39,300 nt of DNA from Escherichia phage vB_EcoP_FFK3 (ON548433.1); one strand, 5' to 3'; positions 646-17,576 are shown, numbered from the stretch's first letter. Made by a program: numbers and translations. The notes: generated by a model from the letters alone, not told the origin.

Positions 646-3600
646 ATGTCCACGATTACACAATTCCCCTCAGGAAACACTCAGTACAGGATTGAGTTCG
701 ACTACCTAGCCAGAACGTTTATTGTTGTTACGCTGGTGAATAGCTCTAACCCTACCCTGAACCGTGTACTGGAAGTTGGTCGGGATTACCGATTCCTTAA
801 TCCAACGATGATTGAGATGTTGGTTGACCAATCAGGTTTCGACATCGTTCGTATTCACCGTCAGACTGGAACTGACTTAGTGGTAGACTTCAGGAATGGC
901 TCAGTGTTGACAGCTAGTGACCTGACCAATTCAGAGCTTCAGGCTATCCATATTGCAGAAGAAGGTCGAGACCAAACGGTTGACTTAGCGAAGGAATATG
1001 CCGATGCTGCTGGTAGCTCTGCTGGCAACGCTAAGGATAGCGAGGACGAAGCACGACGAATCGCTGAGAGTATCAGGGAAGCTGGTCTAATTGGCTATAT
1101 TACCCGTCGCTCCTTCGAGAAAGGCTACAACGTTACAAAATGGAGCGAGGTCCTGCTATGGGAAGAGGATGGTGATTATTACCGCTGGGATGGTACGCTT
1201 CCAAAGAACGTTCCTGCTGGTTCAACTCCTGAAACTTCCGGTGGGATTGGATTAGGTGCGTGGGTTAGTGTTGGTGATGCGGCTTTAAGAAGTCAGATTT
1301 CAAATCCTGAAGGGGCAATACTCTACCCTGAATTACATAGAGCACGCTGGCTTGATGAAAAAGATGTTCGTGGTTGGGGGGCTAAAGGTGATGGTGTCAC
1401 TGATGATACAGCAGCGTTAACGAGCGCATTAAACGACATACCGGTTGGACAAAAGATTAATGGCAATGGGAAGACATATAAGGTCACATCCCTGCCTGAC
1501 ATTAGTCGCTTCATCAACACTCGTTTCGTTTATGAGCGCATTCCCGGACAACCTCTTTATTATGCCTCTGAGGAATTTGTTCAGGGTGAGTTGTTCAAAA
1601 TAACGGACACCCCTTATTACAATGCGTGGCCTCAGGATAAAGCGTTCGTATATGATAATGTGATATATGCACCTTACATGGGTAGCGATCGTCATGGTGT
1701 TAGTCGTCTGCATGTATCATGGGTTAAGTCTGGTGATGATGGTCAAACATGGTCTACTCCAGAGTGGTTAACTGATCTGCATCCAGATTACCCTACAGTG
1801 AACTATCACTGTATGAGTATGGGTGTATGTCGCAACCGTCTGTTTGCCATGATTGAAACACGTACTTTAGCCAAGAACGCATTAACCAATTGTGCATTGT
1901 GGGATCGCCCCATGTCTCGTAGCCTGCATCTTACTGGTGGTATCACTAAAGCTGCAAATCAGCGATATGCAACAATACATGTACCAGACCACGGACTATT
2001 CGTGGGTGATTTTGTTAACTTCTCTAATTCTGCGGTAACAGGTGTATCCGGTGATATGACTGTTGCAACCGTAATAGATAAGGACAACTTCACGGTTCTT
2101 ACACCCAACCAGCAGACTTCAGATTTGAATAACGCTGGAAATAATTGGCACATGGGTACTTCTTTCCATAAGTCTCCATGGCGTAAGACAGACCTTGGTC
2201 TAATCCCTCGTGTCACAGAGGTGCATAGCTTTGCTACTATTGATAACAATGGCTTTGTTATGGGCTATCATCAAGGCGATGTAGCTCCACGCGAAGTTGG
2301 GCTTTTCTATTTCCCTGATGCTTTCAATAGCCCATCTAGTTATGTTCGTCGTCAGATACCATCTGAGTATGAACCAGATGCGTCAGAGCCGTGCATCAAG
2401 TACTATGACGGTGTATTATACCTTATCACTCGTGGCACTCGTGGGGATAGACTAGGTAGCTCTTTGCATCGTAGTAGAGACATAGGTCAGACTTGGGAGT
2501 CACTGAGATTTCCACATAATGTTCATCATACTACATTACCTTTTGCTAAAGTAGGGGATGACCTTATTATGTTTGGTTCAGAACGTGCAGAAAATGAATG
2601 GGAAGCAGGTGCACCAGATGATCGTTACAAGGCATCTTATCCGCGCACCTTCTATGCACGCTTGAATGTAAACAATTGGAATGCAGATGATATTGAATGG
2701 GTTAACATCACTGACCAGATTTATCAGGGCGGAATAGTTAACTCAGGTGTAGGTGTTGGTTCGGTAGTTGTGAAGGATAATTACATCTACTACATGTTTG
2801 GTGGAGAGGACCATTTTAACCCATGGACATACGGAGATAACTCAGCGAAGGACCCATTCAAATCAGACGGTCATCCCTCAGATTTGTATTGCTACAAAAT
2901 GAAGATTGGCCCAAGCAATCATGTTTCCCGTGATTTCAGGTATGGCGCTGTACCTAACAGAGCTGTTCCCGTGTTTTTTGATACGAATGGGATTCGCACT
3001 GTTCCTGCGCCAATGGAATTTACAGGGGATTTGGGTTTAGGGCATGTGACCCTTAGAGCCAGCACCAGTAGTAACATTCGCTCTGAAGTTTTAATGGAAG
3101 GTGAATATGGGTTTATCGGGAAGTCTATACCGACTGATAACCCGGCAGGGCAGCGCACCATATTTTGCGGGGGTGAAGGAACCAGTTCAACGACTGGCGC
3201 ACAGATTACGCTTTATGGTGCAAATAACACCGACTCAAGGCGAATAGTTTACAATGGTGATGAGCATCTGTTCCAGACTGCTGACGTTAAGCCTTATCAC
3301 GATAACGTCATTGCGCTTGGTGGACCAAGTAACCGTTTCACAACTGCATATCTCGGAAGCAACCCTATTGTTACTTCTAATGGGGAGAAGAAAACAGAGC
3401 CGGTAGTTTTTGATGATGCTTTCCTAGATGCCTGGGGTGACGTTCACTACATCATGTATCAATGGTTAGATGCTGTTCAACTGAAAGGCAATGATGCTCG
3501 TATTCACTTCGGGGTTATTGCTCAGCAAATTCGTGATGTATTCATTGCACACGGTCTGATGGATGAAAACAGTACGAATTGTCGTTATGCTGTTCTGTGC

Positions 3601-4979: not shown

Positions 4980-6739
4980 GTAAAGACTTAGTGGCGCGTC
5001 AGGCGCTAATGACTGCCCGTATGAAGGCAGACTTCGTGTTCTTCCTGTTCGTCCTGTGGAAAGCTCTGTCACTCCCGGTCCCGACTCGCTGTCAGATTGA
5101 CATGGCGAAGAAACTATCGGCTGGCGACAACAGGCGTTTCATCCTACAGGCGTTCCGTGGTATCGGGAAGTCCTTCATTACGTGTGCATTCGTGGTCTGG
5201 AAACTATGGAACAACCCAGACTTGAAGTTCATGATTGTGTCGGCCTCAAAGGAACGAGCCGATGCGAACTCCATCTTCATCAAGCGAATCATCGACCTCA
5301 TGCCTCAGCTTAAGGAACTCAAACCTAAGCAGGGACAGCGAGATGCGGTTATCAGCTTCGACGTTGGACCAGCCAAGCCGGACCACTCACCTTCGGTTAA
5401 GTCCGTTGGTATCACTGGTCAGTTGACTGGTAGTCGTGCTGACATCCTGATTGCCGATGACGTGGAGGTTCCGAACAACTCAGCGACTCAGGCTGCACGA
5501 GACCGTCTGTCAGAGCTTGTGAAAGAGTTCGATGCTATCCTGAAGCCCGGAGGCACAATCATCTATCTGGGTACTCCTCAGAACGAGATGACCCTGTATC
5601 GTGAGTTGGAAGGTCGTGGGTATACCACTACTATCTGGCCTGCTCGTTATCCACGCGACAGGAAGGACTGGCAGTCTTACGGCGACCGTCTGGCTCCTAT
5701 GCTTCAGGCAGAGCTTGAAGAGGACCCTGAGTCCTTCTACTGGCGTCCTACCGACGAGGTACGCTTCGATGATACGGACCTGAAGGAACGTGAGTTGTCA
5801 TATGGCAAGGCTGGCTTCGCTCTACAGTTCATGCTTAACCCTAACCTGAGTGATGCCGAGAAGTACCCTCTGAAGCTCCGTGACCTTATCGTAGCAGACT
5901 TGGACCCAGCGTCTAGCCCAATGGTCTACCAATGGCTTCCTAACCCTCAGAACAAGCGTGAGGACGTTCCTAACGTTGGACTCATAGGTGACTCATACCA
6001 CACGTATCAGACTGTAGGTTCTGCCTTCAGTTCGTACACCCAGAAGATTCTGGTCATTGACCCTAGTGGTCGTGGTAAGGATGAAACGGGTTATGCGGTA
6101 CTGTACCAGCTAAACGGCTACATCTTCGCTATGGAAGTTGGCGGTATGCGAGGTGGCTATGAAGACTCTACGCTGGAAGCCTTGGCTAAGATTGGTCGTA
6201 AGTGGAAGGTAAACGAATACGTCATTGAGGGTAACTTCGGTGATGGTATGTACCTTGAGCTATTCAAGCCTGTAGCTTCCCGTATTCATCCTGCTGCTGT
6301 AACTGAAGTGAAGAGTAAGGGTCAGAAGGAACTCCGCATCTGTGACGTTCTGGAGCCTATCATGGGGTCTCACCGACTTATCGTCAACGCTGCTGCTATC
6401 GTCCAAGATTACCAGTCTGCCTCTGATAAGGATGGTGTTCGTAACCCTATCTACTCTCTCTTCTATCAGATGACACGTATCTCTCGTGAACGTGGAGCAT
6501 TGGCACACGATGACCGACTTGATGCGCTGGCTATCGGTGTACAGTTCTTCGTTGAGTCTATGGCGAAGGATGCCAACAAAGGCGAACGTGAAGTCACTGA
6601 GGAGTGGCTGGAGGAACAGATGGAGAACCCACGGAAAGGCTTCGAGTCCATCCACACGGAGTTCTGGGACAATGGGGTCCGGGTAACTCACGATACGGAC
6701 GACGAGACGGGACTAGGGTCCTACGTTACGTTCCACTAG
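4976..6739 (+). CDS. gp19: Terminase large subunit (T7 gp19-like), probable TTG start
   Basis: 587 aa; similarity to T7 gp19 from the first residues ([30 protein letters not shown]); TTG at 4976 preceded by AGGAGG at 4960-4965; next in-frame ATG would remove conserved N-terminus. Confidence 0.9.
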
Positions 6740-6746
6740 CTGAATG

Positions 6747-6799
6747 AATAACTATAGGCGAAAACTGAATTAATAAGCAGTTAGTAACCTATAGTTACT
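6747..6799 (+). other. Inverted repeat of promoter-like half-sites after terminase gene
   Basis: TAACTATAGG (6749-6758) and its reverse complement CCTATAGTTA (6788-6797) separated by 29 nt. Confidence 0.4.
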
Positions 6800-6833
6800 A
6801 CCAGTCTAACCTACTGTTTTACAAGGAGTTTGG

Positions 6834-6856
6834 ACTTAACTATCACTATAGGGAAG
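6834..6856 (+). promoter_or_regulatory. Phage RNAP promoter (phiOR-like, class III-like GGGA start)
   Basis: ACTTAACTATCACTATAGGGAAG; +1 G at 6851. Confidence 0.8.
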
Positions 6857-7035
6857 ACCCCCGGTTACTTATAGTATTACTGTAGTGAATATACATATGC
6901 AGACTTTATGCAAGACCTTAGGAGGCAGACTCCGAGTTCTTACCTAAGGCTTGCACCGATTGAAGGAGGGTGATATTAATCATAATCCCTCCAATACAGA
7001 TAGTAAAGACCATAGATACAGGAGGTATGTAGCAT

Positions 7036-7194
7036 ATGGCAAAGACCAAAGCTGTACTTAAAGCTCTGGCTACCAATCGAGCTACATACAGGTTTCTTGC
7101 TGCTGTTCTACTTGCTGCTGGCGTTACTGCTGGAAGTCAGTGGGTCGGGTGGGTCGAGACTCTCGTATGTTCTCTGGTGTCTCAGTGCAATTAA
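7036..7194 (+). CDS. gp19.5-like small protein
   Basis: 52-aa ORF with RBS GGAGG 8 nt upstream; downstream of phiOR-like promoter as T7 gene 19.5; hydrophobic core (FLAAVLLAAGV); absent from ORF track because under 60 aa. Confidence 0.45.
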   Translation: MAKTKAVLKALATNRATYRFLAAVLLAAGVTAGSQWVGWVETLVCSLVSQCN

Positions 7195-7444
7195 CGCAAT
7201 CATGGTAACGATTCATGAAAGGAGGTAGGTAGGTGTGAACGAAGATGACTACGTGTCGTTCTCAGAAGAGGACTACCAGACAGAGTGGGAATACGCACAT
7301 GGGAGGAAGAGCTAAGGTCAGTACGTGGATAAAGACTCACTCTACTGACCTTAGCTACTGTAGTCAAGGACTTTAGGTAACACCTTAATAGAAGCTCACT
7401 TAGTGTCATCCTACTTATTGGTCTATCCTAGTGTCGCCTGACCT

Positions 7445-7485
7445 ACGGTCCTTGACCTACAGTGGCTGTGGCCTACAGTAGTGAC
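7445..7485 (+). repeat. Short-repeat array (CCTAC(A/G)GT x3) on the right-end side of the terminal repeat
   Basis: GACCTACGGT, GACCTACAGT, GGCCTACAGT within 40 nt. Confidence 0.6.
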
Positions 7486-7517
7486 GATGAGTTTTGGACC
7501 AAAAGTTTGAGACCACA

Positions 7518-7705
7518 TCTCACAGTTCAAGAACCTCAAGTCTCCCCATAGGCCCTCTTTAAGTCCAGACCAAAGGCCCTACCCAGTCTATCATAAGGCT
7601 GGACCGATGGTCGACGATAGGTCTAGGCTATGGCTGGAGGTCAGGACGATAGGTAGGGACTATTGGTCTGTCTTTGAGTCTCTATCTGTATAGTGTTATA
7701 GTATA
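7518..7705 (+). repeat. Candidate terminal repeat (single copy as in a concatemer junction or circularised assembly); boundaries approximate
   Basis: Begins TCTCACAGT..CCCCATAGG, resembling the recalled first bases of the T7 genome; ends near ..GAGTCTCTATCTGTATAGTG, resembling the end of the T7 terminal repeat; flanked by short-repeat arrays. Confidence 0.45.
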
Positions 7706-7719
7706 ACATTACGTCCTAC

Positions 7720-7815
7720 ACCTACAGTCCTACACCTACAGTCCTACAACCTACAGTCCTACAACCTACAGTCTCAACCATAAGACACCAACACCTACAG
7801 TCAGAGACCTACAGT
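7720..7815 (+). repeat. Short-repeat array (about 6 copies of ACCTACAGT) on the left-end side of the terminal repeat
   Basis: CCTACACCTACAGT x2, CCTACAACCTACAGT x2, then two more CCTACAGT copies; analogous to T7 CCTAAAG repeats. Confidence 0.65.
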
Positions 7816-7926
7816 TACTAGACACAGAGCTATAGACTTAAGGTCAAAGACATGTTAGTCAAAGACTATATCCTCTTACACCATGAGGTCGACGATAGCT
7901 TAATCAATATTATTTCAAATTACCTA

Positions 7927-7962
7927 TTGACTATAGGTCAAGACTATGGCTTAATAGCTTCC
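7927..7962 (+). promoter_or_regulatory. Candidate host sigma70 early promoter (A1-like), weak -10
   Basis: TTGACT at 7927-7932 followed 17-19 nt later by TTAATA/TAATAG. Confidence 0.3.
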
Positions 7963-8067
7963 GTCAACACGACACGGCAACAACCGGATAGTGAAGACGC
8001 CTGGTCATCCCGGTTAAGTAGACAGCCTGATAAGACATACGAACAACAGGCAAACGACAGAAAGTAG

Positions 8068-8103
8068 TTGACAAGATGTAACGATAAGATGTAAGATGTA
8101 CCA
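8068..8103 (+). promoter_or_regulatory. Candidate host sigma70 early promoter (T7 A2/A3-like)
   Basis: TTGACA (8068-8073), 17-18 nt spacer, TAAGAT (8092-8097), then GATGTACCACAT matching the recalled T7 A3 initiation region. Confidence 0.55.
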
Positions 8104-8211
8104 CATCGAAACAACGGTGATGACCAACACTGAAATGGTCTACCTGAAGTCCTCTGACTGAAGGGAATGCTCTTTAACAATCTGGATAAACTCTTAATGT
8201 GCGCCGATAGC

Positions 8212-8268
8212 GATTAACTACAGGGTCTTTGAGTCTACATCTGAAGGCCCTGACTGATAGTCACTAAC
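8212..8268 (+). other. Structured element upstream of the first early gene (R0.3-like hairpin), copy A
   Basis: GATTAACTACAGG..GGCCCTGACTGATAGTCACTAAC; stem CAGGGTC/GGCCCTG; paralogous to copy B with compensatory stem changes. Confidence 0.5.
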
Positions 8269-8275
8269 TTAAAGG

Positions 8276-8530
8276 ATGAACACTATGAAACACTTAAGCA
8301 CAATCACTAATCACAATGAAGTATTCGTGAACACTAAAGGTTATGCGTGGATTCAGCTTAAAGAGATGACAGGAGCGCGTCACCGTGTGGTAGTGCGCAA
8401 GGTCTCAAGCAAGCCGTTCAGCAACTACAGCGTAGATACTGTGCGTATAGACAACGAGACCTACCTGATAGATTCGCAGATAACCGTGAGTCCTACAGCG
8501 GGCGTCTCAGCTCCTTATTTCGCTAACTGA
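8276..8530 (+). CDS. Hypothetical early protein
   Basis: 84-aa ORF, RBS AAAGGA, first gene after the early promoter region; no recognised homolog. Confidence 0.5.
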   Translation: MNTMKHLSTITNHNEVFVNTKGYAWIQLKEMTGARHRVVVRKVSSKPFSNYSVDTVRIDNETYLIDSQITVSPTAGVSAPYFAN

Positions 8531-8534
8531 GAGT

Positions 8535-8585
8535 GATTAACTACAGGTCGTTAGACTTATAGCGGCCTGACTGATAGTCACTAAC
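8535..8585 (+). other. Structured element upstream of ocr (R0.3-like hairpin), copy B
   Basis: GATTAACTACAGG..GGCCTGACTGATAGTCACTAAC; stem CAGGTCG/CGGCCTG. Confidence 0.5.
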
Positions 8586-8617
8586 ATACACACAAACAAC
8601 TTTGAGAGGATATAACT

Positions 8618-8962
8618 ATGGAACGTAACGCTAACGCATACTATGAGCTGCTGGCTGCAACCGTTGAGCTGTTCAATGAGCGTATTCAGTACGACGAAAT
8701 AGCTGAAGGCGATGACTACTATGATGCGCTGCATGAGGTCGTAGACGGTCAGGTTCCGCACTATTACCACGATATTTTTACGGTGATGGCTGCTGATGGT
8801 ATAGACCACGAGTTCGAAGACTCTGGGCTGATGCCTGAGACCAAGGACGTAACGCGTATACTACAAGCTCGCATCTATGAGGCACTGTATAACGATGTGT
8901 ATGATAGCTCGGATGTAGTCTGGTTTGAGGCTGAAGAGAGTGACGAGGAGGACTGCGAGTGA
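8618..8962 (+). CDS. ocr: Ocr-like DNA-mimic anti-restriction protein (T7 gp0.3 homolog)
   Basis: 114 aa, highly acidic; near-identical blocks to recalled T7 Ocr ([43 protein letters not shown]). Confidence 0.85.
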
Positions 8963-9111
8963 TGGTAACTTATGGTCTCTGCCAGCACCACGTCACCAAC
9001 GCCCGGCTTATGGTCAAGACCGGGCAGTTAAACCACGATGCGACTATGCGCCACCTGAAAGCGGTCTACGAGGGCCGCAAGCGTATACACGACAGCTTAC
9101 ACACTGAGTGA
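8962..9111 (+). CDS. Hypothetical small early protein
   Basis: 49-aa ORF whose ATG overlaps the ocr stop (TGATG); preferred over the alternative-frame ORF 8925..9107 for that reason only. Confidence 0.3.
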   Translation: MVTYGLCQHHVTNARLMVKTGQLNHDATMRHLKAVYEGRKRIHDSLHTE

Positions 9112-9118
9112 TAGACGA

Positions 9119-9144
9119 GAGGTCATCGACTGATAGGTGGCCTC
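9119..9144 (+). other. Stem-loop of the AGGTCAT/GTGGCCT family
   Basis: GAGGTCAT (9119-9126), loop CGACTGATAG, GTGGCCTC (9137-9144); same stem architecture as elements at 4440, 12822, 19827. Confidence 0.45.
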
Positions 9145-9177
9145 AAAGATTACCACTTAAATTGATAGAGGTTAACT

Positions 9178-9267
9178 ATGAACATCGGTTACTGGGTATG
9201 CCTGTCTCCAGTTATCTGGATGATAGGCTATGGGTTATACGACTGTATTAAACGGAAATCACTATGA
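9178..9267 (+). CDS. Hypothetical small hydrophobic peptide
   Basis: 29-aa ORF with SD GAGG; stop overlaps next start (ATGA); hydrophobic. Confidence 0.3.
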   Translation: MNIGYWVCLSPVIWMIGYGLYDCIKRKSL

Positions 9268-9461
9268 GTCTTGCACTATTGATAGCCATAGGCTATGGAC
9301 TTATCACCTACGTGCTGGTGAGAGACATCGACAAAGCGCGTAAAGTCTACAAATTCAACTATGTACGTCTGGGCCGCTGGACTGTACGTCAACCTAACGG
9401 ACGATTCATGCGCAACTTAGCGAACGTCTGGGACATAGCAACTATTGGGAGCAAACTGTAA
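9264..9461 (+). CDS. Hypothetical small membrane protein (early)
   Basis: 65 aa; N-terminal TM segment (LALLIAIGYGLITYVLV); translationally coupled to neighbours. Confidence 0.5.
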   Translation: MSLALLIAIGYGLITYVLVRDIDKARKVYKFNYVRLGRWTVRQPNGRFMRNLANVWDIATIGSKL

Positions 9462-9721
9462 TGAAAACCGTATACATTAACAAACCATCTATCCGTAGCC
9501 GTGTAGAGCAAATACAGCGTGACGTGTTCTTACATCGCCGCATGGAGGCAGAGGGCCATAAGTCCGAACTGATGTGTCTGGCGTATGGTGGACGACCGAT
9601 CACTGACGATGGTAGACTTTTAGTCTCAGGCTGGAAGGCGATAGACCAACGGTCAACCATCAAGCACACGACTCATGGTGACTTCAGCCATCTCCACGCT
9701 AACCCACTGATATGCAAGTAA
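9461..9721 (+). CDS. Hypothetical early protein
   Basis: 86-aa ORF; start overlaps previous stop (TAATG). Confidence 0.5.
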   Translation: MKTVYINKPSIRSRVEQIQRDVFLHRRMEAEGHKSELMCLAYGGRPITDDGRLLVSGWKAIDQRSTIKHTTHGDFSHLHANPLICK

Positions 9722-9726
9722 TTATG

Positions 9727-9749
9727 ACTTAACTATCACTATAGGACTC
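9727..9749 (+). promoter_or_regulatory. Phage RNAP promoter immediately upstream of the RNAP gene
   Basis: ACTTAACTATCACTATAGGACTC; exact match to the window consensus; +1 G at 9744, 75 nt before the gene 1 start. Confidence 0.75.
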
Positions 9750-9818
9750 AAGGTCTAAGACTCCAAGTGAAAGACCAAAGAGACTTTAAGTGAAAGACTA
9801 ATAACAAGGACTTTAAGT

Positions 9819-12500
9819 ATGAGCGTCATCTCTATTGATAAACACGACTTCTCTGATGTGTCGAACGCCATTGAGCCGTTTAACCTGCTGGCCGACCACT
9901 ACGGGCAAGATCTTGCAGTCAAACAGCTTCAGCTTGAGCATGAGGCATACACTGAAGGCGAGCGACGTTTCATCAAGAACCTTGAGCGACAGACTGAGCG
10001 CGGGGAACTGGCAGACAATCAGGTCGCCAAGCCTTTGATGCAGACTCTGGTCCCTAAGATTGCGCAAGCCGTCAAGGAGTGGCACGAAGGTCCAGACGGG
10101 AAGCTGTCAACCTCTCGTCCTAGCGTAGCGTTCACCATGTTGAGCACTGAAGAGAAGGCCGTCAAGGACCGCTCACTGCGTATCTCTTGCGAGTCTGCTG
10201 CGGTCATCATACTGAAGGTCATACTCTCCAAGCTGGTCAAGCCTGAGGGGATACCAATTACACCGATGGCTTCCGCGATAGGTCGCACACTTGAGGATGA
10301 AATCCGCTTCGGTCGCATCCGTGACAAGGAGAAGGAGCACTTCAAGAAGGCGATAGCTGATAACCTGAATAAGCGGGCCGGGGCGTCCTACAAGAAAGCC
10401 TACATGCAAGCGGTCGAGGCATCCATGCTGGAGCAAGGACAACTTGAAGATGCGTGGGGAACTTGGAGTCCTACAGAGGCTGTCCACGTTGGCATCAAGA
10501 TGCTTGAGATTGTCATCCAGTCAACACAACTGGTAGAGCTTAAGCGGTACGGTGCTGGCAATGCAGCGGCTGACGTAGAGATGGTCCACCTGTCAGACTT
10601 CTGGGTCAAGAAGATGGCACAACGAGGATTCAGCCTTGCGGGTATCGCTCCAGTCTACCAGCCTTGCGTCGTTCCACCTAAGCCGTGGACTGGTGTCGTA
10701 GGTGGTGGGTACTGGGCCAAAGGTCGCAGACCGTTACCATTGATTCGCTTAGGGTCTAAGTCTGCGGTGGCACGTTATGAAGACGTGTACATGCCTGAAG
10801 TCTATGACGCTGTGAATATCATCCAGAATACACCTTGGAAAGTGAACAAGAAGGTATTAGACGTGGTGAACATGGTCGAGAAGCTGAACAACACGCCTAT
10901 TGATGACATCCCTCAGATGGAACCGCTGAAGCCTGAAGACTATGCGGGTGAGACTGAGGAGGAACTCAAGGCATGGAAGAAGGCTGCTGCTGGTATCTAT
11001 CGCCGCGAGAAGGCCAGACAGTCACGCAGATTATCACTGAGCTTTATCGTTAACCAAGCGAACAAGTTCTCTCAGTTCAAGGCCATCTGGTTCCCGTACA
11101 ACATGGACTGGCGAGGTCGTGTCTACGCTGTGCCGATGTTCAACCCTCAGGGTAACGACATGCAGAAGGGTCTCCTGACTCTGGCAGTCGGTAAGCCTAT
11201 TGGTGCTGATGGTTTCAAATGGCTGAAGGTCCACGGTGCAAACTGTGCTGGTGTCGATAAAGTCACCTTCGAGGAGCGTATCAAGTGGGTGGAAGACAAC
11301 CACGAAAACATCATGGCTGCTGCTAAGGCACCGATGGATAGTATTGAGTGGTGGGGCAAGTTAGACTCTCCGTTCTGTTTCCTCGCGTTCTGCTTCGAGT
11401 ATGCTGGCGTAATGCACCACGGCCTGTCTTACTCCTGCTCGCTGCCGATAGCGTTCGATGGGTCCTGCTCTGGTATTCAGCACTTCAGTGCGATGCTTCG
11501 TGACCACATCGGTGGACATGCAGTAAACCTGACGCCATCCGGTAAGGTACAAGACATCTACCGCATTGTGTCTGACCGCATTGAGGAGGAGCTTAAAGTC
11601 CTGCTGATTAACGGTACTGACAACGAGATGGTCACTCACGAGGATAAGAAAACTGGTGAGATTACCGAACGTATCAAGCTGGGGACACGAGAGCTGGCCC
11701 GGCAGTGGCTGACTTACGGCATGTCACGCAAGGTCACTAAGCGTTCAGTAATGACTCTGGCCTATGGGTCGAAAGAGTACGGCTTCGCAGACCAAGTTTA
11801 TGAGGACATCGTGATGCCAGCGATTGACTCAGGGTCTGGCGCTATGTTCACCGAACCAAGCCAAGCGTCCCGCTTCATGGCTAAGATGATTTGGGAAGCT
11901 GTGAGCGTGACCGTAGTTGCTGCGGTTGACGCGATGAAGTGGCTTCAGGGTGCTGCCAAGCTGCTGGCTGCTGAAGTGAAGGACAAGAAGACTGGAGAAA
12001 TCCTGAAGCCTTGCCTTCCGGTACACTGGGTAACACCTGATGGTTTCCCGGTCTGGCAGGAATACCGCAAGAAGGATACCACTCGTCTGAATCTGATGTT
12101 CTTAGGGTCATTCAACCTTCAACCTACGGTCAACAAAGGCACGAAGAAAGAGCTTGACAAGCACAAGCAGGAGTCAGGCATTAGCCCGAACTTCGTCCAC
12201 TCACAAGATGGTAGCCACCTCCGCAAGACTGTAGTCCACACGCATCGCAAGTATGGCGTGATGTCATTCGCAGTGATTCATGATAGCTTCGGGACCATCC
12301 CGGCTGACGCTGAACATCTGTTCCGTGGTGTCCGTGAGACGATGGTCGAGACCTACCGCGACAACGATGTGCTGCTTGACTTCTACGAGCAGTTTGAATA
12401 CCAGCTTCATGAGAGCCAGCGCGACAAGTTGCCTGAGCTTCCGAAGAAAGGTAAACTGAATATCGAAGACATCTTGTCTTCAGACTTTGCATTCGCTTAA
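9819..12500 (+). CDS. gp1: Single-subunit DNA-directed RNA polymerase (T7 gp1 homolog)
   Basis: 893 aa; conserved T7 RNAP blocks incl. catalytic DGSCSGIQH and C-terminal FAFA; RBS AAGGA. Confidence 0.95.
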   Translation: MSVISIDKHDFSDVSNAIEPFNLLADHYGQDLAVKQLQLEHEAYTEGERRFIKNLERQTERGELADNQVAKPLMQTLVPKIAQAVKEWHEGPDGKLSTSRPSVAFTMLSTEEKAVKDRSLRISCESAAVIILKVILSKLVKPEGIPITPMASAIGRTLEDEIRFGRIRDKEKEHFKKAIADNLNKRAGASYKKAYMQAVEASMLEQGQLEDAWGTWSPTEAVHVGIKMLEIVIQSTQLVELKRYGAGNAAADVEMVHLSDFWVKKMAQRGFSLAGIAPVYQPCVVPPKPWTGVVGGGYWAKGRRPLPLIRLGSKSAVARYEDVYMPEVYDAVNIIQNTPWKVNKKVLDVVNMVEKLNNTPIDDIPQMEPLKPEDYAGETEEELKAWKKAAAGIYRREKARQSRRLSLSFIVNQANKFSQFKAIWFPYNMDWRGRVYAVPMFNPQGNDMQKGLLTLAVGKPIGADGFKWLKVHGANCAGVDKVTFEERIKWVEDNHENIMAAAKAPMDSIEWWGKLDSPFCFLAFCFEYAGVMHHGLSYSCSLPIAFDGSCSGIQHFSAMLRDHIGGHAVNLTPSGKVQDIYRIVSDRIEEELKVLLINGTDNEMVTHEDKKTGEITERIKLGTRELARQWLTYGMSRKVTKRSVMTLAYGSKEYGFADQVYEDIVMPAIDSGSGAMFTEPSQASRFMAKMIWEAVSVTVVAAVDAMKWLQGAAKLLAAEVKDKKTGEILKPCLPVHWVTPDGFPVWQEYRKKDTTRLNLMFLGSFNLQPTVNKGTKKELDKHKQESGISPNFVHSQDGSHLRKTVVHTHRKYGVMSFAVIHDSFGTIPADAEHLFRGVRETMVETYRDNDVLLDFYEQFEYQLHESQRDKLPELPKKGKLNIEDILSSDFAFA

Positions 12501-12518
12501 TAACATAGGAGAGACAAC

Positions 12519-12719
12519 ATGCAGTTCGCACACCGTGTATCAAACGTATCTGGCGGCAACAAGGTAGTAACCGTAACCACTGTGGCTGGCAAGGGTCTGG
12601 TCAAGGTTACTATGGTCCCGACCGGAACGGCTAAGGCCAAGGGTATCAGCCAGAAGGAGCTGATTCAGGTAATCAAGTGGTCCCACGAGAAGTCCCTACG
12701 GGAAGAGGCAACCAAATGA
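12519..12719 (+). CDS. Hypothetical protein between RNAP gene and phi1.1-like promoter
   Basis: 66-aa ORF with RBS GGAGAG; no recognised homolog. Confidence 0.45.
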   Translation: MQFAHRVSNVSGGNKVVTVTTVAGKGLVKVTMVPTGTAKAKGISQKELIQVIKWSHEKSLREEATK

Positions 12720-12793
12720 CAGACCTACAGTTACTGGCCTTGTGGCTGGGAGTACTAGCAGTATTCACTTTAATCCAACTCAGAAGAGGTTAA

Positions 12794-12816
12794 CCTAAAC
12801 TATCACTATAGGATTA
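12794..12816 (+). promoter_or_regulatory. Phage RNAP promoter (phi1.1A-like)
   Basis: CCTAAACTATCACTATAGGATTA; +1 G at 12811. Confidence 0.8.
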
Positions 12817-12857
12817 GACTCAAGGTCATGACTCAAAGTCGTGGCCTTCATGATTAA
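12814..12857 (+). other. Conserved stem-loop element, putative RNase III site (R1.1-like)
   Basis: TTAGACTCAAGGTCATG..GTGGCCTTCATGATTAA; stem AAGGTCAT (12822-12829) with GTGGCCTT (12841-12848). Confidence 0.55.
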
Positions 12858-12888
12858 CCCTATAACCTAAACAACTGGAGCTACAACA

Positions 12889-13068
12889 ATGTATCAGAAC
12901 ACTATCAACTTCGAGCGCATCCGTGAACGTCAGCAGACTGAAGACTACATTCCGAAGGGCCGCAAGCTGAACAAGACCAAGCGTGGCGGTGGTGTCAAAG
13001 GAGCTTTCCGTAACGCTGAGGGCAAAGACTCTATGGTAAATCAAGAGAAATACTTCGTAGGAGCATAA
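12889..13068 (+). CDS. gp1.1-like small basic protein
   Basis: 59-aa ORF with SD CTGGAG; motif KGRKLNKTKR matches recalled T7 gp1.1; under ORF-track threshold. Confidence 0.45.
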   Translation: MYQNTINFERIRERQQTEDYIPKGRKLNKTKRGGGVKGAFRNAEGKDSMVNQEKYFVGA

Positions 13069-13072
13069 CGCT

Positions 13073-13336
13073 ATGGGCCGACTTTATAGTGGCAACATTA
13101 ACGCTTTCAGAGCAGCGTGCAACCGACTATATCAGTTAGACTTCGCTGTCATATCTCAGGAGTCTCAAGACCTTGCGTCACGCCAAGAGTGCATGAGACT
13201 CAGGGTCGAGGACCGGGCTGGTAACATATTCGCTCTTGAGTCCTTCGCACACTACGATGAAGACGTACTGTACAATACTGCAACCGACTTCCTTAATGGT
13301 CTCGCTGACCAACTCGACACATGGAGCAAATCCTAA
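13073..13336 (+). CDS. gp1.2: gp1.2-like protein (T7 dGTPase inhibitor homolog)
   Basis: 87 aa; N-terminus MGRLYSGN and blocks LRVEDRAGN, HYDEDVLYN match recalled T7 gp1.2. Confidence 0.75.
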   Translation: MGRLYSGNINAFRAACNRLYQLDFAVISQESQDLASRQECMRLRVEDRAGNIFALESFAHYDEDVLYNTATDFLNGLADQLDTWSKS

Positions 13337-14388
13337 TGACAACGATTATCAAAACTAACCCACATCGCGCTGTATACTACTCTGAGTCTGGCGTTAAGAA
13401 AGCACTGGATGCCACTGGGTCTCTCGAAGCTGAAGTGAAGTACGATGGCGTCCGGTTGAATCTTCCGGTCTTCCCTACTGGTGAGACTCAATGGTTGAGC
13501 CGTGAGTCTAAACCTCTCCCAGCCCTTAGCTGGTTGAACACTTCCGGTCAGGACATAGGAGCTACCAAAGCGAGCGACTGGCGGTGGTTCCTGAAGCAAG
13601 CTGGCTATGAAGGGACTGGCCTGATGATTGATGGCGAGGTCATGGTGAAAGGGGTTGACTTCAACACGTCTTCGGGCCTCATCCGCACGAAGTATGTCAA
13701 GTCTAAAAACTACGACTTCCACGATGGCGATTGGGACCTCAAGTCCAAGACTACTCAGTTCCGGCTGGACCGAGACCATATCAAGGTGGTCGTCTATGGT
13801 ATCATAGACCTTAACGTCATCCTTGACCCGAAAGCCGAAGGTCCTATCCATAGCGTCACACGCCTGAAGGCCGAAGCTATCGTCCCTCTCCTCCAGAAAT
13901 ACTTCCCGGAAATCGACTGGGTTCTGTCTGAGTCACACACGGTCTATGACATTGAGTCGCTCAACTCCCTGTACGAAGAGAAGCGTCTGGAAGGACATGA
14001 GGGTCTGGTAGTCAAGGACCCACTGGGTAAATACAAGCGTGGCAAGAAGTCAGGCATGTGGAAGATGAAGCCTGAGGAGACAATCGACGGGACCGTGTGT
14101 GGCCTCGTGTGGGGGACTCCGGGTAAGGCGAACGAAGGTAAGGTCATTGGCTTCGAGGTGCTGCTTGAGGATGGCATGGTGGTTAATGCTTGTGGTCTGA
14201 CTGAAGAACAGAAGGATGAGTTTACGGAAGCCTGTAACACTGATACATATATTCTCGGTGGAATCAATCCATACGAAGGCTGGCAGTGTGAAGTCCTTTT
14301 CATGGAGCGGTTCCCTGATGGCTCACTCCGTCATCCCAGCTTCAAGTGTTGGCGTGGAACGGAAGACAATCCAACCGTTAAGAGCTAA
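13336..14388 (+). CDS. gp1.3: ATP-dependent DNA ligase (T7 gp1.3 homolog)
   Basis: Adenylation motif KYDGVR; start taken at ATG 13336 overlapping gp1.2 stop (TAATG), consistent with T7 ligase N-terminus (IKTNP). Confidence 0.9.
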   Translation: MTTIIKTNPHRAVYYSESGVKKALDATGSLEAEVKYDGVRLNLPVFPTGETQWLSRESKPLPALSWLNTSGQDIGATKASDWRWFLKQAGYEGTGLMIDGEVMVKGVDFNTSSGLIRTKYVKSKNYDFHDGDWDLKSKTTQFRLDRDHIKVVVYGIIDLNVILDPKAEGPIHSVTRLKAEAIVPLLQKYFPEIDWVLSESHTVYDIESLNSLYEEKRLEGHEGLVVKDPLGKYKRGKKSGMWKMKPEETIDGTVCGLVWGTPGKANEGKVIGFEVLLEDGMVVNACGLTEEQKDEFTEACNTDTYILGGINPYEGWQCEVLFMERFPDGSLRHPSFKCWRGTEDNPTVKS

Positions 14389-14399
14389 CTAAACGTCAA

Positions 14400-14430
14400 C
14401 CCAGTGGTCTTCGGACTGCTGGGTTTCTTT
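14400..14430 (+). terminator. Early terminator (T7 TE-like) after the ligase gene
   Basis: Stem CCCAGTGGTC/GACTGCTGGG with two G-U wobbles, UUCG tetraloop, followed by TTTCTTT; same position as T7 TE. Confidence 0.7.
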
Positions 14431-14452
14431 GCGTCTTGGCCACAAGCCTGAC

Positions 14453-14475
14453 CCTAAGCTATCACTATAGGACAA
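14453..14475 (+). promoter_or_regulatory. Phage RNAP promoter (variant at -11)
   Basis: CCTAAGCTATCACTATAGGACAA; +1 G at 14470. Confidence 0.7.
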
Positions 14476-14501
14476 CCATAACTCGACCTAAGGAGGCCGA
14501 C

Positions 14502-14765
14502 ATGTTTAAGAACTTAATGTTCAACCGTTATTCCAATACCTTCCACCTGTCTCACAACCCGTTCGCTTGCATTAAGCGCAACGAGAAGCTGGGATACTTC
14601 GGGAAGGCCGTTAAGCTGTCACCTACAGTCTACGCGCTGATTACTCCCGGAAAAGCTGAAGAGGCTCGCCAAAAGCGTGAGACCGACGTACCTGTGGTAT
14701 ACACCAAGTGGCCTCGCGTTCGTCTGTTTATTGAGTTCGTGAAGAAGGAGGTGATCAATGGTTAA
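14502..14765 (+). CDS. Hypothetical protein
   Basis: 88 aa from ATG 14502 with RBS AAGGAGG; the longer ORF-track start at 14436 would overlap the promoter. Confidence 0.5.
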   Translation: MFKNLMFNRYSNTFHLSHNPFACIKRNEKLGYFGKAVKLSPTVYALITPGKAEEARQKRETDVPVVYTKWPRVRLFIEFVKKEVING

Positions 14766-15201
14766 GGTGGGGGATACAGTTAACTATGTTGGACCAGTTG
14801 AAGCCCACACGGGACGCTCCTGTGGCAAGGTGGTAGTGGTTAAGAATGAGCATGTAGCTGTTGTTAAGTGGCCCCGTTTATCTGAACCACTCACTCACTC
14901 CATTAGTTCCTTAAGTATTACCAAGCAGGCGCAGTCCGAGCCGACAACCATAGGTCAGGAAGATAGCGTCCGTAAGCCATCTCACTATCAGGTCTTTGAC
15001 GGTGTGGAATCCATTGAGATTATCGCTCGGTCAATGACTGTCAGCGAGTTCCGTGGCTTCTGCATGGGTAACGTCCTTAAGTATCGACTCCGGGCTGGTA
15101 AGAAGTCAGAGCTAGCAACTATGGAGAAGGACCTAAACAAAGCGGCCTTCTATCAGGAGCTGTTCGACCTGCATAAAGGTAAGTGCTATGACTCCAAGTA
15201 G
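14758..15201 (+). CDS. DUF3310-like protein (possible T7 gp1.7-type nucleotide kinase family)
   Basis: 147 aa; C-terminal block KPSHYQVFDGVESIEIIARSMTVSEFRGFCMGNVLKYRLRAGKK resembles the conserved phage DUF3310 signature; RBS AGGAGG. Confidence 0.5.
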   Translation: MVKVGDTVNYVGPVEAHTGRSCGKVVVVKNEHVAVVKWPRLSEPLTHSISSLSITKQAQSEPTTIGQEDSVRKPSHYQVFDGVESIEIIARSMTVSEFRGFCMGNVLKYRLRAGKKSELATMEKDLNKAAFYQELFDLHKGKCYDSK

Positions 15202-15279
15202 CTGGTGCTTTAGACAGTGGGTCTCAACCGGGAATGTGGACTACCTGTCCATGTACCATATGTGGAAGGAGAAAGGGCT

Positions 15280-15438
15280 ATGAGCCTTGAAGAAAAGAAA
15301 TACATCGTGGAGCTTGAGGGACGCGTTCAGTCCTTCGAGGTTCCGTTGTACGCAAAGTCTCTTGAAGAGGCTACCCTGAAGTCCCAAGAGTATGAGGACG
15401 CTGGGTTTGTGGTCGGACGGATTCGTCCTGAGACCTAA
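15280..15438 (+). CDS. gp2: Host RNA polymerase inhibitor (T7 Gp2 homolog)
   Basis: 52 aa from ATG 15280 (RBS GGAAGGAG); [14 protein letters not shown] and [10 protein letters not shown] match recalled T7 Gp2. Confidence 0.7.
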
Positions 15439-16646: not shown

Positions 16647-16870
16647 TGACTCAGGAAGTTAAGGTAGTTCGTAAGCGTCTGACCATTGATAAAATCCCGG
16701 TAGGCTATGCGTTTATCGTCCACGGTAAGCCGGGTGAAGTGTACGTGAAGATTAGTAACTCTCACGTCTTCAACCATAAGTTACTCCAGATGCACACCAC
16801 GGATGCTAACCGCTTCCAACGTCATCTGAACCTCGTAGCTGTAGAGCTGGTGGTGTATGATGGTGAGTAA
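16646..16870 (+). CDS. Hypothetical protein between endonuclease I and lysozyme genes
   Basis: 74 aa from ATG 16646 overlapping gp3 stop (TGATG); RBS GAAAGGAG; no T7 counterpart at this position. Confidence 0.5.
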   Translation: MTQEVKVVRKRLTIDKIPVGYAFIVHGKPGEVYVKISNSHVFNHKLLQMHTTDANRFQRHLNLVAVELVVYDGE

Positions 16871-17318
16871 GGTGCAATTCAACCCACGGTCCCGGACTGA
16901 CGCTATCTTCGTTCACTGTTCGGCTACCAAGCCAGAGATGGACATCGGGGTAGAGACCATCCGTATGTGGCACAAGCAGCAAGGCTGGCTGGATGTAGGC
17001 TACCACTTTATCATCAAGCGTGACGGTACTGTGGAAGAGGGTCGCCCGGTAAATGTCGTAGGGTCACACGTTAAGGATTGGAACTCCCGGTCAGTAGGCG
17101 TCTGCCTTGTAGGTGGAATTGACGCTAAGGGTCAGTTTGAAGCTAACTTCACTCCAGCCCAGATGAACTCCCTGCGCAACAAGCTGGCTGACCTGAAGGT
17201 CCTGTATCCTCAGGCAGAAATCAAAGCACACCATGACGTAGCACCTAAGGCGTGTCCAAGTTTTGACTTGCAACGCTGGCTGTCTACCAATGAACTGGTC
17301 ACTTCCGACCGTGGTTAA
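16857..17318 (+). CDS. gp3.5: Lysozyme / N-acetylmuramoyl-L-alanine amidase, RNAP inhibitor (T7 gp3.5 homolog)
   Basis: 153 aa; long identical blocks to T7 gp3.5 (DAIFVHCSAT, WLDVGYHFIIKRDGTVE, HHDVAPKACPSFDL, NELVTSDRG). Confidence 0.95.
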   Translation: MMVSKVQFNPRSRTDAIFVHCSATKPEMDIGVETIRMWHKQQGWLDVGYHFIIKRDGTVEEGRPVNVVGSHVKDWNSRSVGVCLVGGIDAKGQFEANFTPAQMNSLRNKLADLKVLYPQAEIKAHHDVAPKACPSFDLQRWLSTNELVTSDRG

Positions 17319-17342: not shown

Positions 17343-17558
17343 ATGATTAAACTTATCGAATTTCTTGGTCGTCTGGTGGTGCGTGGGTATCGTCGTGCTG
17401 CGGTACTGGAACGAAAGGTAGAAAAGAAGACTGCGGACGGTGCGGCTGATGCTGCTGCTCTGGCTGACAAGCTGACCATAGCGTCACTGGAAGCTGGCAT
17501 GAAGGCGCGTCAGGCTGACACCAAAGCTGACCAGTTGGCTCAGTTATTCAAAGCCTAA
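17343..17558 (+). CDS. Hypothetical basic coiled-coil protein
   Basis: 71-aa ORF; Ala/Lys-rich. Confidence 0.45.
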   Translation: MIKLIEFLGRLVVRGYRRAAVLERKVEKKTADGAADAAALADKLTIASLEAGMKARQADTKADQLAQLFKA

Positions 17559-17576
17559 ACTATCACCTTAGGGATG
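17554..17576 (+). promoter_or_regulatory. Degenerate phage promoter-like site (CACCTTAGGG)
   Basis: CCTAAACTATCACCTTAGGGATG; conserved -17 to -6, two mismatches at -4 to -2. Confidence 0.4.

Follow-up and report, generated by a model that had tools for sequence, protein, structure and literature searches.

A probable phage polymerase promoter directly upstream of the gene for RNA polymerase in a K1F-type Escherichia phage

Phage promoters near the polymerase genes of T7 and its relatives

According to the textbook model of T7, the phage polymerase gene is transcribed by the host enzyme only. In the T7 genome (NC_001604), phiOL is located at 405, gene 1 at 3171, and phi1.1A at 5848, as determined from the annotation and from a mismatch-tolerant scan. 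The first strong phage promoters lie just after gene 1, and the E. coli 'C' promoter alone directly precedes the gene. The phiOL promoter, to the left of gene 1 the sole phage promoter of T7, resides 2.77 kb upstream of the gene, ahead of the host promoters and the whole early region.

The DNA examined in the current study is a stretch of 39,300 nt from Escherichia phage vB_EcoP_FFK3 (ON548433.1), hereafter called the window, for which a phage promoter immediately before gene 1 had been proposed. This original prediction took T7 to have no phage promoter upstream of gene 1, which is correct for the region proximal to the gene but overlooks the more distant phiOL. It also held that the proposal would fail if an equivalent promoter were standard in T7; annotation and scan alike reveal no proximal promoter in that phage. 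The T7 promoters phiOL, phi1.1A, and phi1.1B have the same architecture as the site in the window, with a length of 23 bp, the core CACTATAGG, and a G start. In addition, phiOL resembles the window site in being the leftmost phage promoter and in lying upstream of gene 1.

Among the T7-, T3-, and K11-like IMG/VR loci that were scored, none has a promoter in the ∼600 nt preceding gene 1, and extending the distance to 2 kb adds a single locus (L044, at −617). Upstream, the nearest copy in these loci is mostly a phiOL-like promoter 2.0–3.4 kb away; downstream, the first one comes at about +2.68 or +2.75 kb. Likewise, no phage promoter is present close to the gene 1 ATG of Kvp1 or SP6. The exceptional locus L044 is a T3-like contig of 36 kb (positions 9384 and 9974) in which most early genes are apparently missing. 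Its phiOL-like promoter precedes gene 1 by ∼600 nt, and the interval holds no + strand ORF, a layout intermediate between that of T7 and that of gh-1 and K1F.

A promoter before gene 1 is less unusual than had been implied, since the site is annotated in EcoDS1, CR44b, CR8, and PE3-1, and an equivalent exists in gh-1. The EcoDS1 record (NC_011042) lists a 'promoter, phi' at 2244–2266 that is homologous to the window site, has the same 75-nt leader, and is positioned between a gp0.38-like ORF and gene 1. In the records of CR44b and CR8 (HG818823 / HG818824), a 'predicted promoter' is given for each phage. The CR44b site is homologous to ours with essentially no difference, whereas that of CR8 has another specificity (GGTACACTATAGG) and a diverged leader of 87 nt. 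The same site is annotated in PE3-1 (KJ748011), although there it is labeled as a host RNA polymerase promoter, which looks like a mislabel. The four records report no experimental support for these annotations, and the records of K1F, vB_EcoP_F, and Ro45lw omit a promoter before gene 1. A Kayfunavirus genome paper from 2026 (PMC13298934) gives the same promoter consensus and lists copies of CTWAACTATCACTATAGG, including one at the 3′ end of a gene whose number immediately precedes that of the polymerase gene.

The equivalent in Pseudomonas phage gh-1 (NC_004665, 939–961), annotated as 'phi1; putative gh-1 RNAP promoter', is leftmost and lies ∼100 nt before the polymerase gene. This phage belongs to another Studiervirinae genus in which the polymerase gene comes first and phi1 is placed amid the host early promoters, with an R1 stem–loop and a minor terminator annotated beside it. 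The specificity region of the gh-1 promoter is unrelated (AAAAACCCTCACTGTGGC), and its leader is not homologous to that of the window.

Self-amplification of the polymerase has been proposed for two other phages. In LUZ100, the polymerase gene has phi1 directly upstream, and long-read transcriptome data led to the suggestion of a positive feedback loop (PMC10134795). This phage shows temperate features and is only distantly related, and gating of its loop by a MarR-like repressor together with a terminator has been proposed (PMC10134795); neither a repressor gene nor an upstream terminator of this kind was found in the window. In phiA318, a phage promoter precedes a kinase and polymerase gene pair, and 'autoregulation' has been suggested (PMC4099482). 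For both phages, as for the window, read-through by the host polymerase is proposed to seed a self-amplifying loop (PMC10134795, PMC4099482). The arrangement is therefore already known from the annotations of EcoDS1, CR44b, CR8, and gh-1, and published proposals of feedback exist for LUZ100 and phiA318. The residual novelty is the unusually constrained leader.

The promoter, its leader, and the surrounding genome

The promoter region of the window reads ...gaCTTAACTATCACTATAGGACTCaagg..., within which CTTAACTATCACTATAGGACTC spans 9728–9749. An 18-mer consensus derived from this genome, CTWAACTATCACTATAGG, is matched exactly at 9728–9745, and the gene 1 ATG begins at 9819. The full-consensus promoter that had been predicted 75 nt before gene 1 is thus present as described (Table 1). 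The +1 position was set at the first G of the GG by analogy with T7. When up to three mismatches are permitted, 11 copies of the motif occur in the window, every one on the + strand. Only 0.06 copies are expected at this threshold in shuffled sequences, and none of 100 shuffles reached 11. The gene 1 site is real and far beyond what chance would produce. The eleventh copy, at 17555–17572, is a weaker promoter-like sequence (CTAAACTATCACCTTAGG, with two mismatches) just upstream of the primase/helicase region, and is followed immediately by a strong hairpin (−22.8 kcal/mol, z −2.7).

Table 1. Coordinates of features in the window, with sequence variation among 16 distinct K1F-type sequences
Feature	Position	Strand	Variable positions	Remarks
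Promoter motif copies (start positions)	578, 6835, 9728, 12795, 14454, 15435, 17555, 24139, 26960, 27959, 32603	+		
phiOR-like promoter	6834..6856	+		+1 = 6851; near right genome end
Last early ORF, gp0.38 homologue	9461..9721	+	11/34 (third codon positions)	Stop 5 nt before promoter −17
Phage RNAP promoter phi1 (putative)	9727..9749	+	0/23 (−17 to +6)	+1 = G9744; sequence ACTTAACTATCACTATAGGACTC
phi1 transcript leader (predicted), 75 nt	9744..9818	+	5/56 (+7 to +62)	A-rich, 36% GC (64% AT)
AAGTGAAAGAC copy 1	9765..9775	+		Extended unit 9758–9778
AAGTGAAAGAC copy 2	9788..9798	+		Extended unit 9781–9801
Shine–Dalgarno AAGGA	9806..9810	+	0/13 (SD to ATG)	8 nt before ATG
Gene 1, single-subunit T7-type RNA polymerase, 893 aa	9819..12500	+	182/300 (61%; third codon positions)	Pfam, loop alignment
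Next downstream phage promoter	12794..12816	+		+1 = 12811; ∼310 nt past gene 1 stop
Early terminator after ligase gene	14397..14432	+		TE-like hairpin and T run; sequence read
gp2-like inhibitor of host RNA polymerase	15217..15438	+		Pfam PF16857, E 3e-19
gp3.5-like amidase/lysozyme	16857..17318	+		Pfam PF01510, E 2e-16

The site has the attributes of T7-group (Studiervirinae) promoters of the K1F specificity class, including an element of ∼23 bp with its core and G start, and coding-strand copies located in spacers or at gene ends. The copy at gene 1 occupies the 97-nt spacer at 9722–9818. Pfam and loop comparison also identify a cognate polymerase in the genome whose specificity loop, TRLNLMFLGSFNLQ, matches promoter positions −8 to −12. 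The gene 1 promoter would yield the initial transcript GGACTC, which is of the GGA type. Such starts are typical of the middle-gene promoters of this phage (GGATTA, GGACAA, and GGACAG), whereas the capsid-gene promoter specifies GGGAGA. A host sigma-70 promoter, as the PE3-1 record has it, was rejected since a sigma-70 scan is empty at the site and the match to the phage promoter is exact. From these characteristics, the site is probably a functional promoter for the phage's own RNA polymerase. In the Kayfunavirus literature, as far as it could be searched, no report of a transcript 5′ end or of initiation in vitro was found.

The ORF at 9819–12500 matches the Pfam families RNA_pol (PF00940, E 7e-107) and RPOL_N (PF14700), and its start region shares 98% nucleotide identity with phage K1F. 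RefSeq names the T7-type polymerases of such phages 'N4-like RNA polymerase', and the public record similarly contains an oddity in the early region, where a 71-aa ORF at 7852–8067 is called 'alpha,alpha-trehalase'. The leader that precedes gene 1 is composed of loose reiterations of GACT..AAG..AAGAC and folds weakly, with 192 of 200 shuffled versions giving the more stable structure (z +1.40). A search of positions 9500–10000 against Rfam returned a sub-threshold chance match to a snoRNA and nothing else. The block AAGGACTTTAAGTATG at the end of the leader is identical across all Kayfunavirus leaders examined. When used as an exact pattern to scan IMG/VR, this block retrieved mainly unrelated chance matches along with contigs that were already known.

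The two direct repeats that had been reported in the leader were confirmed as exact copies of AAGTGAAAGAC. There are exactly two copies, whose extended units of 21 nt are 86% identical, and TRF scored no tandem array for them. Both copies are invariant within K1F-type leaders. In GW1-type leaders, copy 1 is degenerate and copy 2 is kept, whereas Dev2-type leaders have a single copy and CR8 retains only loose AAGAC reiterations. Two exact copies are therefore confined to the K1F-type leader, and for this reason we reject a pair of protein-binding sites (iterons or operators) as a general feature, as conservation of both copies across promoter-bearing relatives would be expected of such a pair. 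Short ORFs for which the GTG within each repeat would serve as start codon (GTG AAA GAC TAA and a 9-codon frame) were also dismissed because they lack a ribosome-binding site and, by eye, are not conserved in Dev2-type leaders.

The window represents a T7-like genome in circularly permuted form, with its physical left end at ∼7501 by the coordinates of K1F and EcoDS1. The early region extends over ∼7500–9720 and is followed by gene 1 and then by the DNA-metabolism and structural genes. A concatemer-junction-like TATCTGT at 7683–7689 matches the annotated junction position in EcoDS1, and a short-repeat array of the CCTACAGT type, typical of T7-group left ends, covers 7715–7830. Together, these two features confirm the circular permutation and the genome end near 7501. 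A motif scan located no phage promoter between this left end and phi1, and contigs of relatives that begin at the left end likewise have no promoter to the left of phi1. The EcoDS1 annotation also shows only host promoters before 'phi'. The phi1 site is thus the leftmost phage promoter because Kayfunavirus genomes have no phiOL.

As an autogenous arrangement demands, promoter and polymerase gene share one orientation with the promoter upstream, and no terminator was detected between them. Indeed, a scan of 6700–15000 identified no terminator-like site before gene 1. The early terminator that follows the ligase gene is trailed immediately by a phage promoter (+1 = 14470). In K1F, a rho-independent early terminator has been placed at 7128–7161 (PMC4099482), which is just past the K1F ligase gene (6096–7118). 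The transcribed motif GACTCAAGGTC is common to the start of the leader (9744–9760) and to positions 12811–12830, which suggests an old duplication of a promoter plus leader. The transcript from 12811 would open with a strong stem–loop (z −4.8).

Conservation and co-variation with polymerase specificity

The window is a variant of vB_EcoP_F (KY295894, a Kayfunavirus of the K1F group), which has the same length, carries the region at the same coordinates, and is 97.8% identical to the window over 9000–10500. Its IMG/VR copy (L004, IMGVR_UViG_2974615076_000001) encodes an identical polymerase protein. Over window positions 1–22497, the two sequences are separated by 361 substitutions (1.6%) but by no indels, with most changes at third codon positions; within gene 1, 47 of 51 differences are of this kind. 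None of the differences falls in the promoter 23-mers, compared with ∼2.6 expected by our own estimate, which is not a significant deficit.

To cover a broader range, 80 IMG/VR loci with relatives of the polymerase were collected, and the promoter consensus was derived de novo for each locus. In all 22 loci with a polymerase that is 88%–100% identical, the promoter is present 75–81 nt before the ATG. In the Citrobacter phage CR8 (Caroctavirus), whose polymerase is 79% identical, the promoter is 87 nt before the annotated ATG. K1F, EcoDS1, PE3-1, CR44b, PRF-SP11, and others have the same promoter and leader, and at least 80% of window positions 9640–10000 is covered in ∼220 phage records of GenBank.

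Variation was counted site by site over the 16 K1F-type sequences (Table 1). Promoter and leader together vary at 5 of 92 positions, with π of 0.010 versus 0.167 for the third codon positions of gene 1 (Fisher p 3e-23). Moreover, an alignment reveals that the leader is homologous over the K1F, GW1, Dev2, and CR8 types. This pattern indicates that the promoter is under purifying selection, which preserves its placement, sequence, and specificity across Kayfunavirus and Caroctavirus, as judged by comparison of these genomes. However, conservation of the leader could instead reflect constraints at the level of RNA or translation.

Changes in promoter specificity provide a second line of evidence. 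Genome-wide, the promoter consensus of GW1-type Kayfunavirus loci (L018, L043, and L176) is TTAAACCCTCACTATAGG. Their promoters, including the copy at gene 1, read AAACCCTCACTATAGG instead of AACTATCACTATAGG, such that CCCT replaces CTAT, and their leader from +1 onward is nearly identical to that of the K1F type. The specificity loop of the GW1-type polymerase is TRLDLMFLGTFRLQ and differs from that of the window. This loop carries D748 and R756 (T7 numbering), as do T3-like enzymes, which likewise use CCCT. N748/N756 accompanies ACTAT, and D748/R756 accompanies ACCCT. In CR8, both the loop and the promoter are of a third type, and this promoter type again occurs before gene 1. The co-variation of the gene 1 site with the loop argues for selection of this site as a promoter. 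A side observation is that one subgroup within the genus Kayfunavirus, the GW1 type, has switched to a T3-like polymerase specificity.

One group departs from its own consensus at this site. In Dev2/Ro45lw-type loci (L012–L014, L020, L022, L175, and L177), the gene 1 promoter alone has an A at −2 (CACTAAAGG), whereas the other promoters of these genomes carry TATA or TGTA. This substitution may weaken the promoter and, like the omission of the site from the records of K1F, vB_EcoP_F, and Ro45lw, counts against a promoter function. Nevertheless, the fixed distance to the ATG, the co-variation with the loop, and the invariance of the site give comparative support to the claim that the RNA polymerase can transcribe its own gene, although initiation at 9744 is an extrapolation from these comparisons. 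Further support comes from independent annotators, who labeled the homologous sites of EcoDS1, CR44b, and CR8 as phage promoters, and from the precedent of phi1 in LUZ100.

A model for polymerase gene expression and competing explanations

The simplest explanation for these findings, and one that we consider likely, is that the leftmost promoter for the phage's own RNA polymerase, located 75 nt before gene 1, is functional and confers positive feedback on polymerase synthesis. Host sigma-70 polymerase would start near the left end, traverse the early genes and the promoter into gene 1, and run on as far as the terminator that follows the ligase gene, as in the T7 model with no intervening terminators. 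Read-through into gene 1 is expected because the stop codon of the upstream ORF is 5 nt from −17 and no terminator was found. The first phage polymerase molecules would then recognize the promoter and initiate at G9744, and the resulting gene 1 mRNA would have a leader of 75 nt that is A-rich and unstructured, along with a strong ribosome-binding site. Gene 1 would in this way be both an early gene, transcribed by the host polymerase, and a middle gene, transcribed by the phage polymerase.

Such feedback could sustain polymerase synthesis once the gp2 homologue shuts off the host enzyme, and the phage polymerase would gain a start site upstream of genes 1–1.3. In T7, gp3.5 binds the phage polymerase and damps its activity. 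Because its start is of the GGA type, like those of the middle-gene promoters, the loop would probably be damped later by the gp3.5-like lysozyme in the manner of T7 class II promoters. What the analysis establishes is the sequence, the promoter family to which it belongs, its conservation, and the co-variation with specificity; initiation, feedback, and shut-off are inferred. The promoter may also serve a hand-over during DNA entry or the expression of genes 1.05–1.3.

A more tentative alternative is that the promoter is functional but was selected as the leftmost entry point, replacing phiOL, rather than for feedback on gene 1. It might then permit an early hand-over of transcription-coupled internalization and of genes 1.05–1.3, or the priming of replication, and we regard either role as possible but less probable. 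The phiOL and phi1.1 origins of T7 prime replication. Consistent with an entry-point role, no promoter is found farther left in the window, in left-end relatives, or in the curated EcoDS1 annotation, and T7- and K11-like phages have a phiOL-like promoter 2.1–3.4 kb upstream of gene 1 instead. The distances in L044 (∼600 nt) and gh-1 (∼100 nt) suggest a positional continuum, the next promoter in the window is ∼3 kb farther to the right, and the leader is locally 64% AT. However, the origin region of T7 is far more AT-rich than this leader. The tight constraint on the promoter-to-ATG distance and on the ribosome-binding site suggests that the stretch is used as the leader of the gene 1 mRNA. Furthermore, the promoter is ∼2.2 kb from the left end, and therefore the host polymerase would still be needed to bring it into the cell. 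An entry-point role is also compatible with feedback because transcripts from the site must traverse gene 1.

Two further proposals invoke RNA structure. The first, which we consider doubtful, is that promoter and leader form a dual-use element, acting as a promoter in DNA and pairing as RNA only in transcripts made by host read-through. Such use could be possible because the leader is as constrained as amino-acid-changing positions and a AAGTGAAAGAC box is found in every Kayfunavirus leader type. If so, the two classes of gene 1 mRNA might differ in processing or translation, or a factor that tunes polymerase synthesis might bind the box, and the Dev2-type A at −2, which perfects a 10-bp pairing, would be a compensatory change.

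The second proposal, which seems still less probable, is that the conservation reflects an RNA element in which the core (−8 to +6) pairs with the second AAGTGAAAGAC region to create an RNase III site like R1 of T7, with promoter activity being secondary. Local hairpins are predicted for the K1F type (−17.4 kcal/mol, z −2.1), Dev2 (−19.2, z −2.3), and CR8 (−20.4, z −2.8), and these are comparable to the R1 region of T7 (−21.2, z −1.6). The Dev2-type sequence ATCACTAAAG has a perfect 10-nt complement, CTTTAGTGAT, ∼50 nt downstream, and the A at −2 that perfects this pairing is found at no other promoter of those genomes. Also, four of the five variable leader sites are unpaired. However, the fold windows were chosen after the hairpin was seen. 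On the post hoc 70-nt window, the K1F-type hairpin scores z −2.1 to −2.5, whereas windows of 139–151 nt give z −0.1 to −0.75. Larger windows overall range from z −0.75 to +0.46, and the minimum-energy fold of the Dev2 type omits the pairing. In a control, pairing of the core or of the initial transcript with sequence farther downstream proved common at other promoters of this genome, some with stronger hairpins (12811, z −4.8; 27975, z −4.7; 17571, z −2.7), and there is no Rfam match. Moreover, a role in RNA only fails to explain why positions −10 and −9 switch along with polymerase specificity.

Two near-identical hairpins do occur in early spacers at 8208–8265 and 8531–8585, with GATTAACTACAGG...CCTGACTGATAGTCAC in common, the latter hairpin having −23.7 kcal/mol and z −4.2. 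Both resemble RNase III processing sites of the T7 type, situated ahead of the gp0.2-like ORF and the ocr gene. Neither the GATTAACTACAGG nor the CCTGACTGATAGTCAC motif is present near gene 1. We therefore downgraded the RNase III and dual-use hairpin candidates, given that their z scores are lost in larger windows, stronger hairpins exist elsewhere, and the early-hairpin motif is absent. An RNA-level role for the promoter and leader is a minority possibility.

Finally, a chance or relic sequence without function, such as the leftover of a promoter duplication, would fit the GACTCAAGGTC start shared with the 12811 promoter and the lack of annotation in several relatives' records, but this highly improbable reading is effectively refuted by conservation and co-variation: an exact 18-mer stands where only 0.06 copies are expected even with three mismatches permitted, the site is invariant next to synonymous sites of which 61% vary, and no K1F-like relative examined lacks it, with its specificity positions rewritten along with the polymerase loop.

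A functional promoter that feeds back on gene 1 would be a natural counterpart of the 'autogene', a type of circuit that is hard to tame in synthetic biology. In 1991, Dubendorff and Studier reportedly placed T7 gene 1 under a T7 promoter in such a circuit. The T7 autogene is reportedly hard to maintain uninduced owing to runaway expression. The circuit logic is the same in both cases; however, the autogene is synthetic, whereas the loop proposed here would be natural and seeded by the host polymerase during lytic infection. The natural loop is presumably limited by lysozyme and by cell death.

The gene 1 promoter could inform models of infection timing, although it opens no new question as such. 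Its recognition should aid the annotation of Kayfunavirus genomes sequenced for phage therapy, for which several records omit or mislabel the site, and may guide the engineering of K1F-type phages and of K1F polymerase and promoter pairs. In contrast to the textbook model of T7, many relatives, including the K1F group, CR8, gh-1, and LUZ100, appear to wire the polymerase gene to its own promoter as well.
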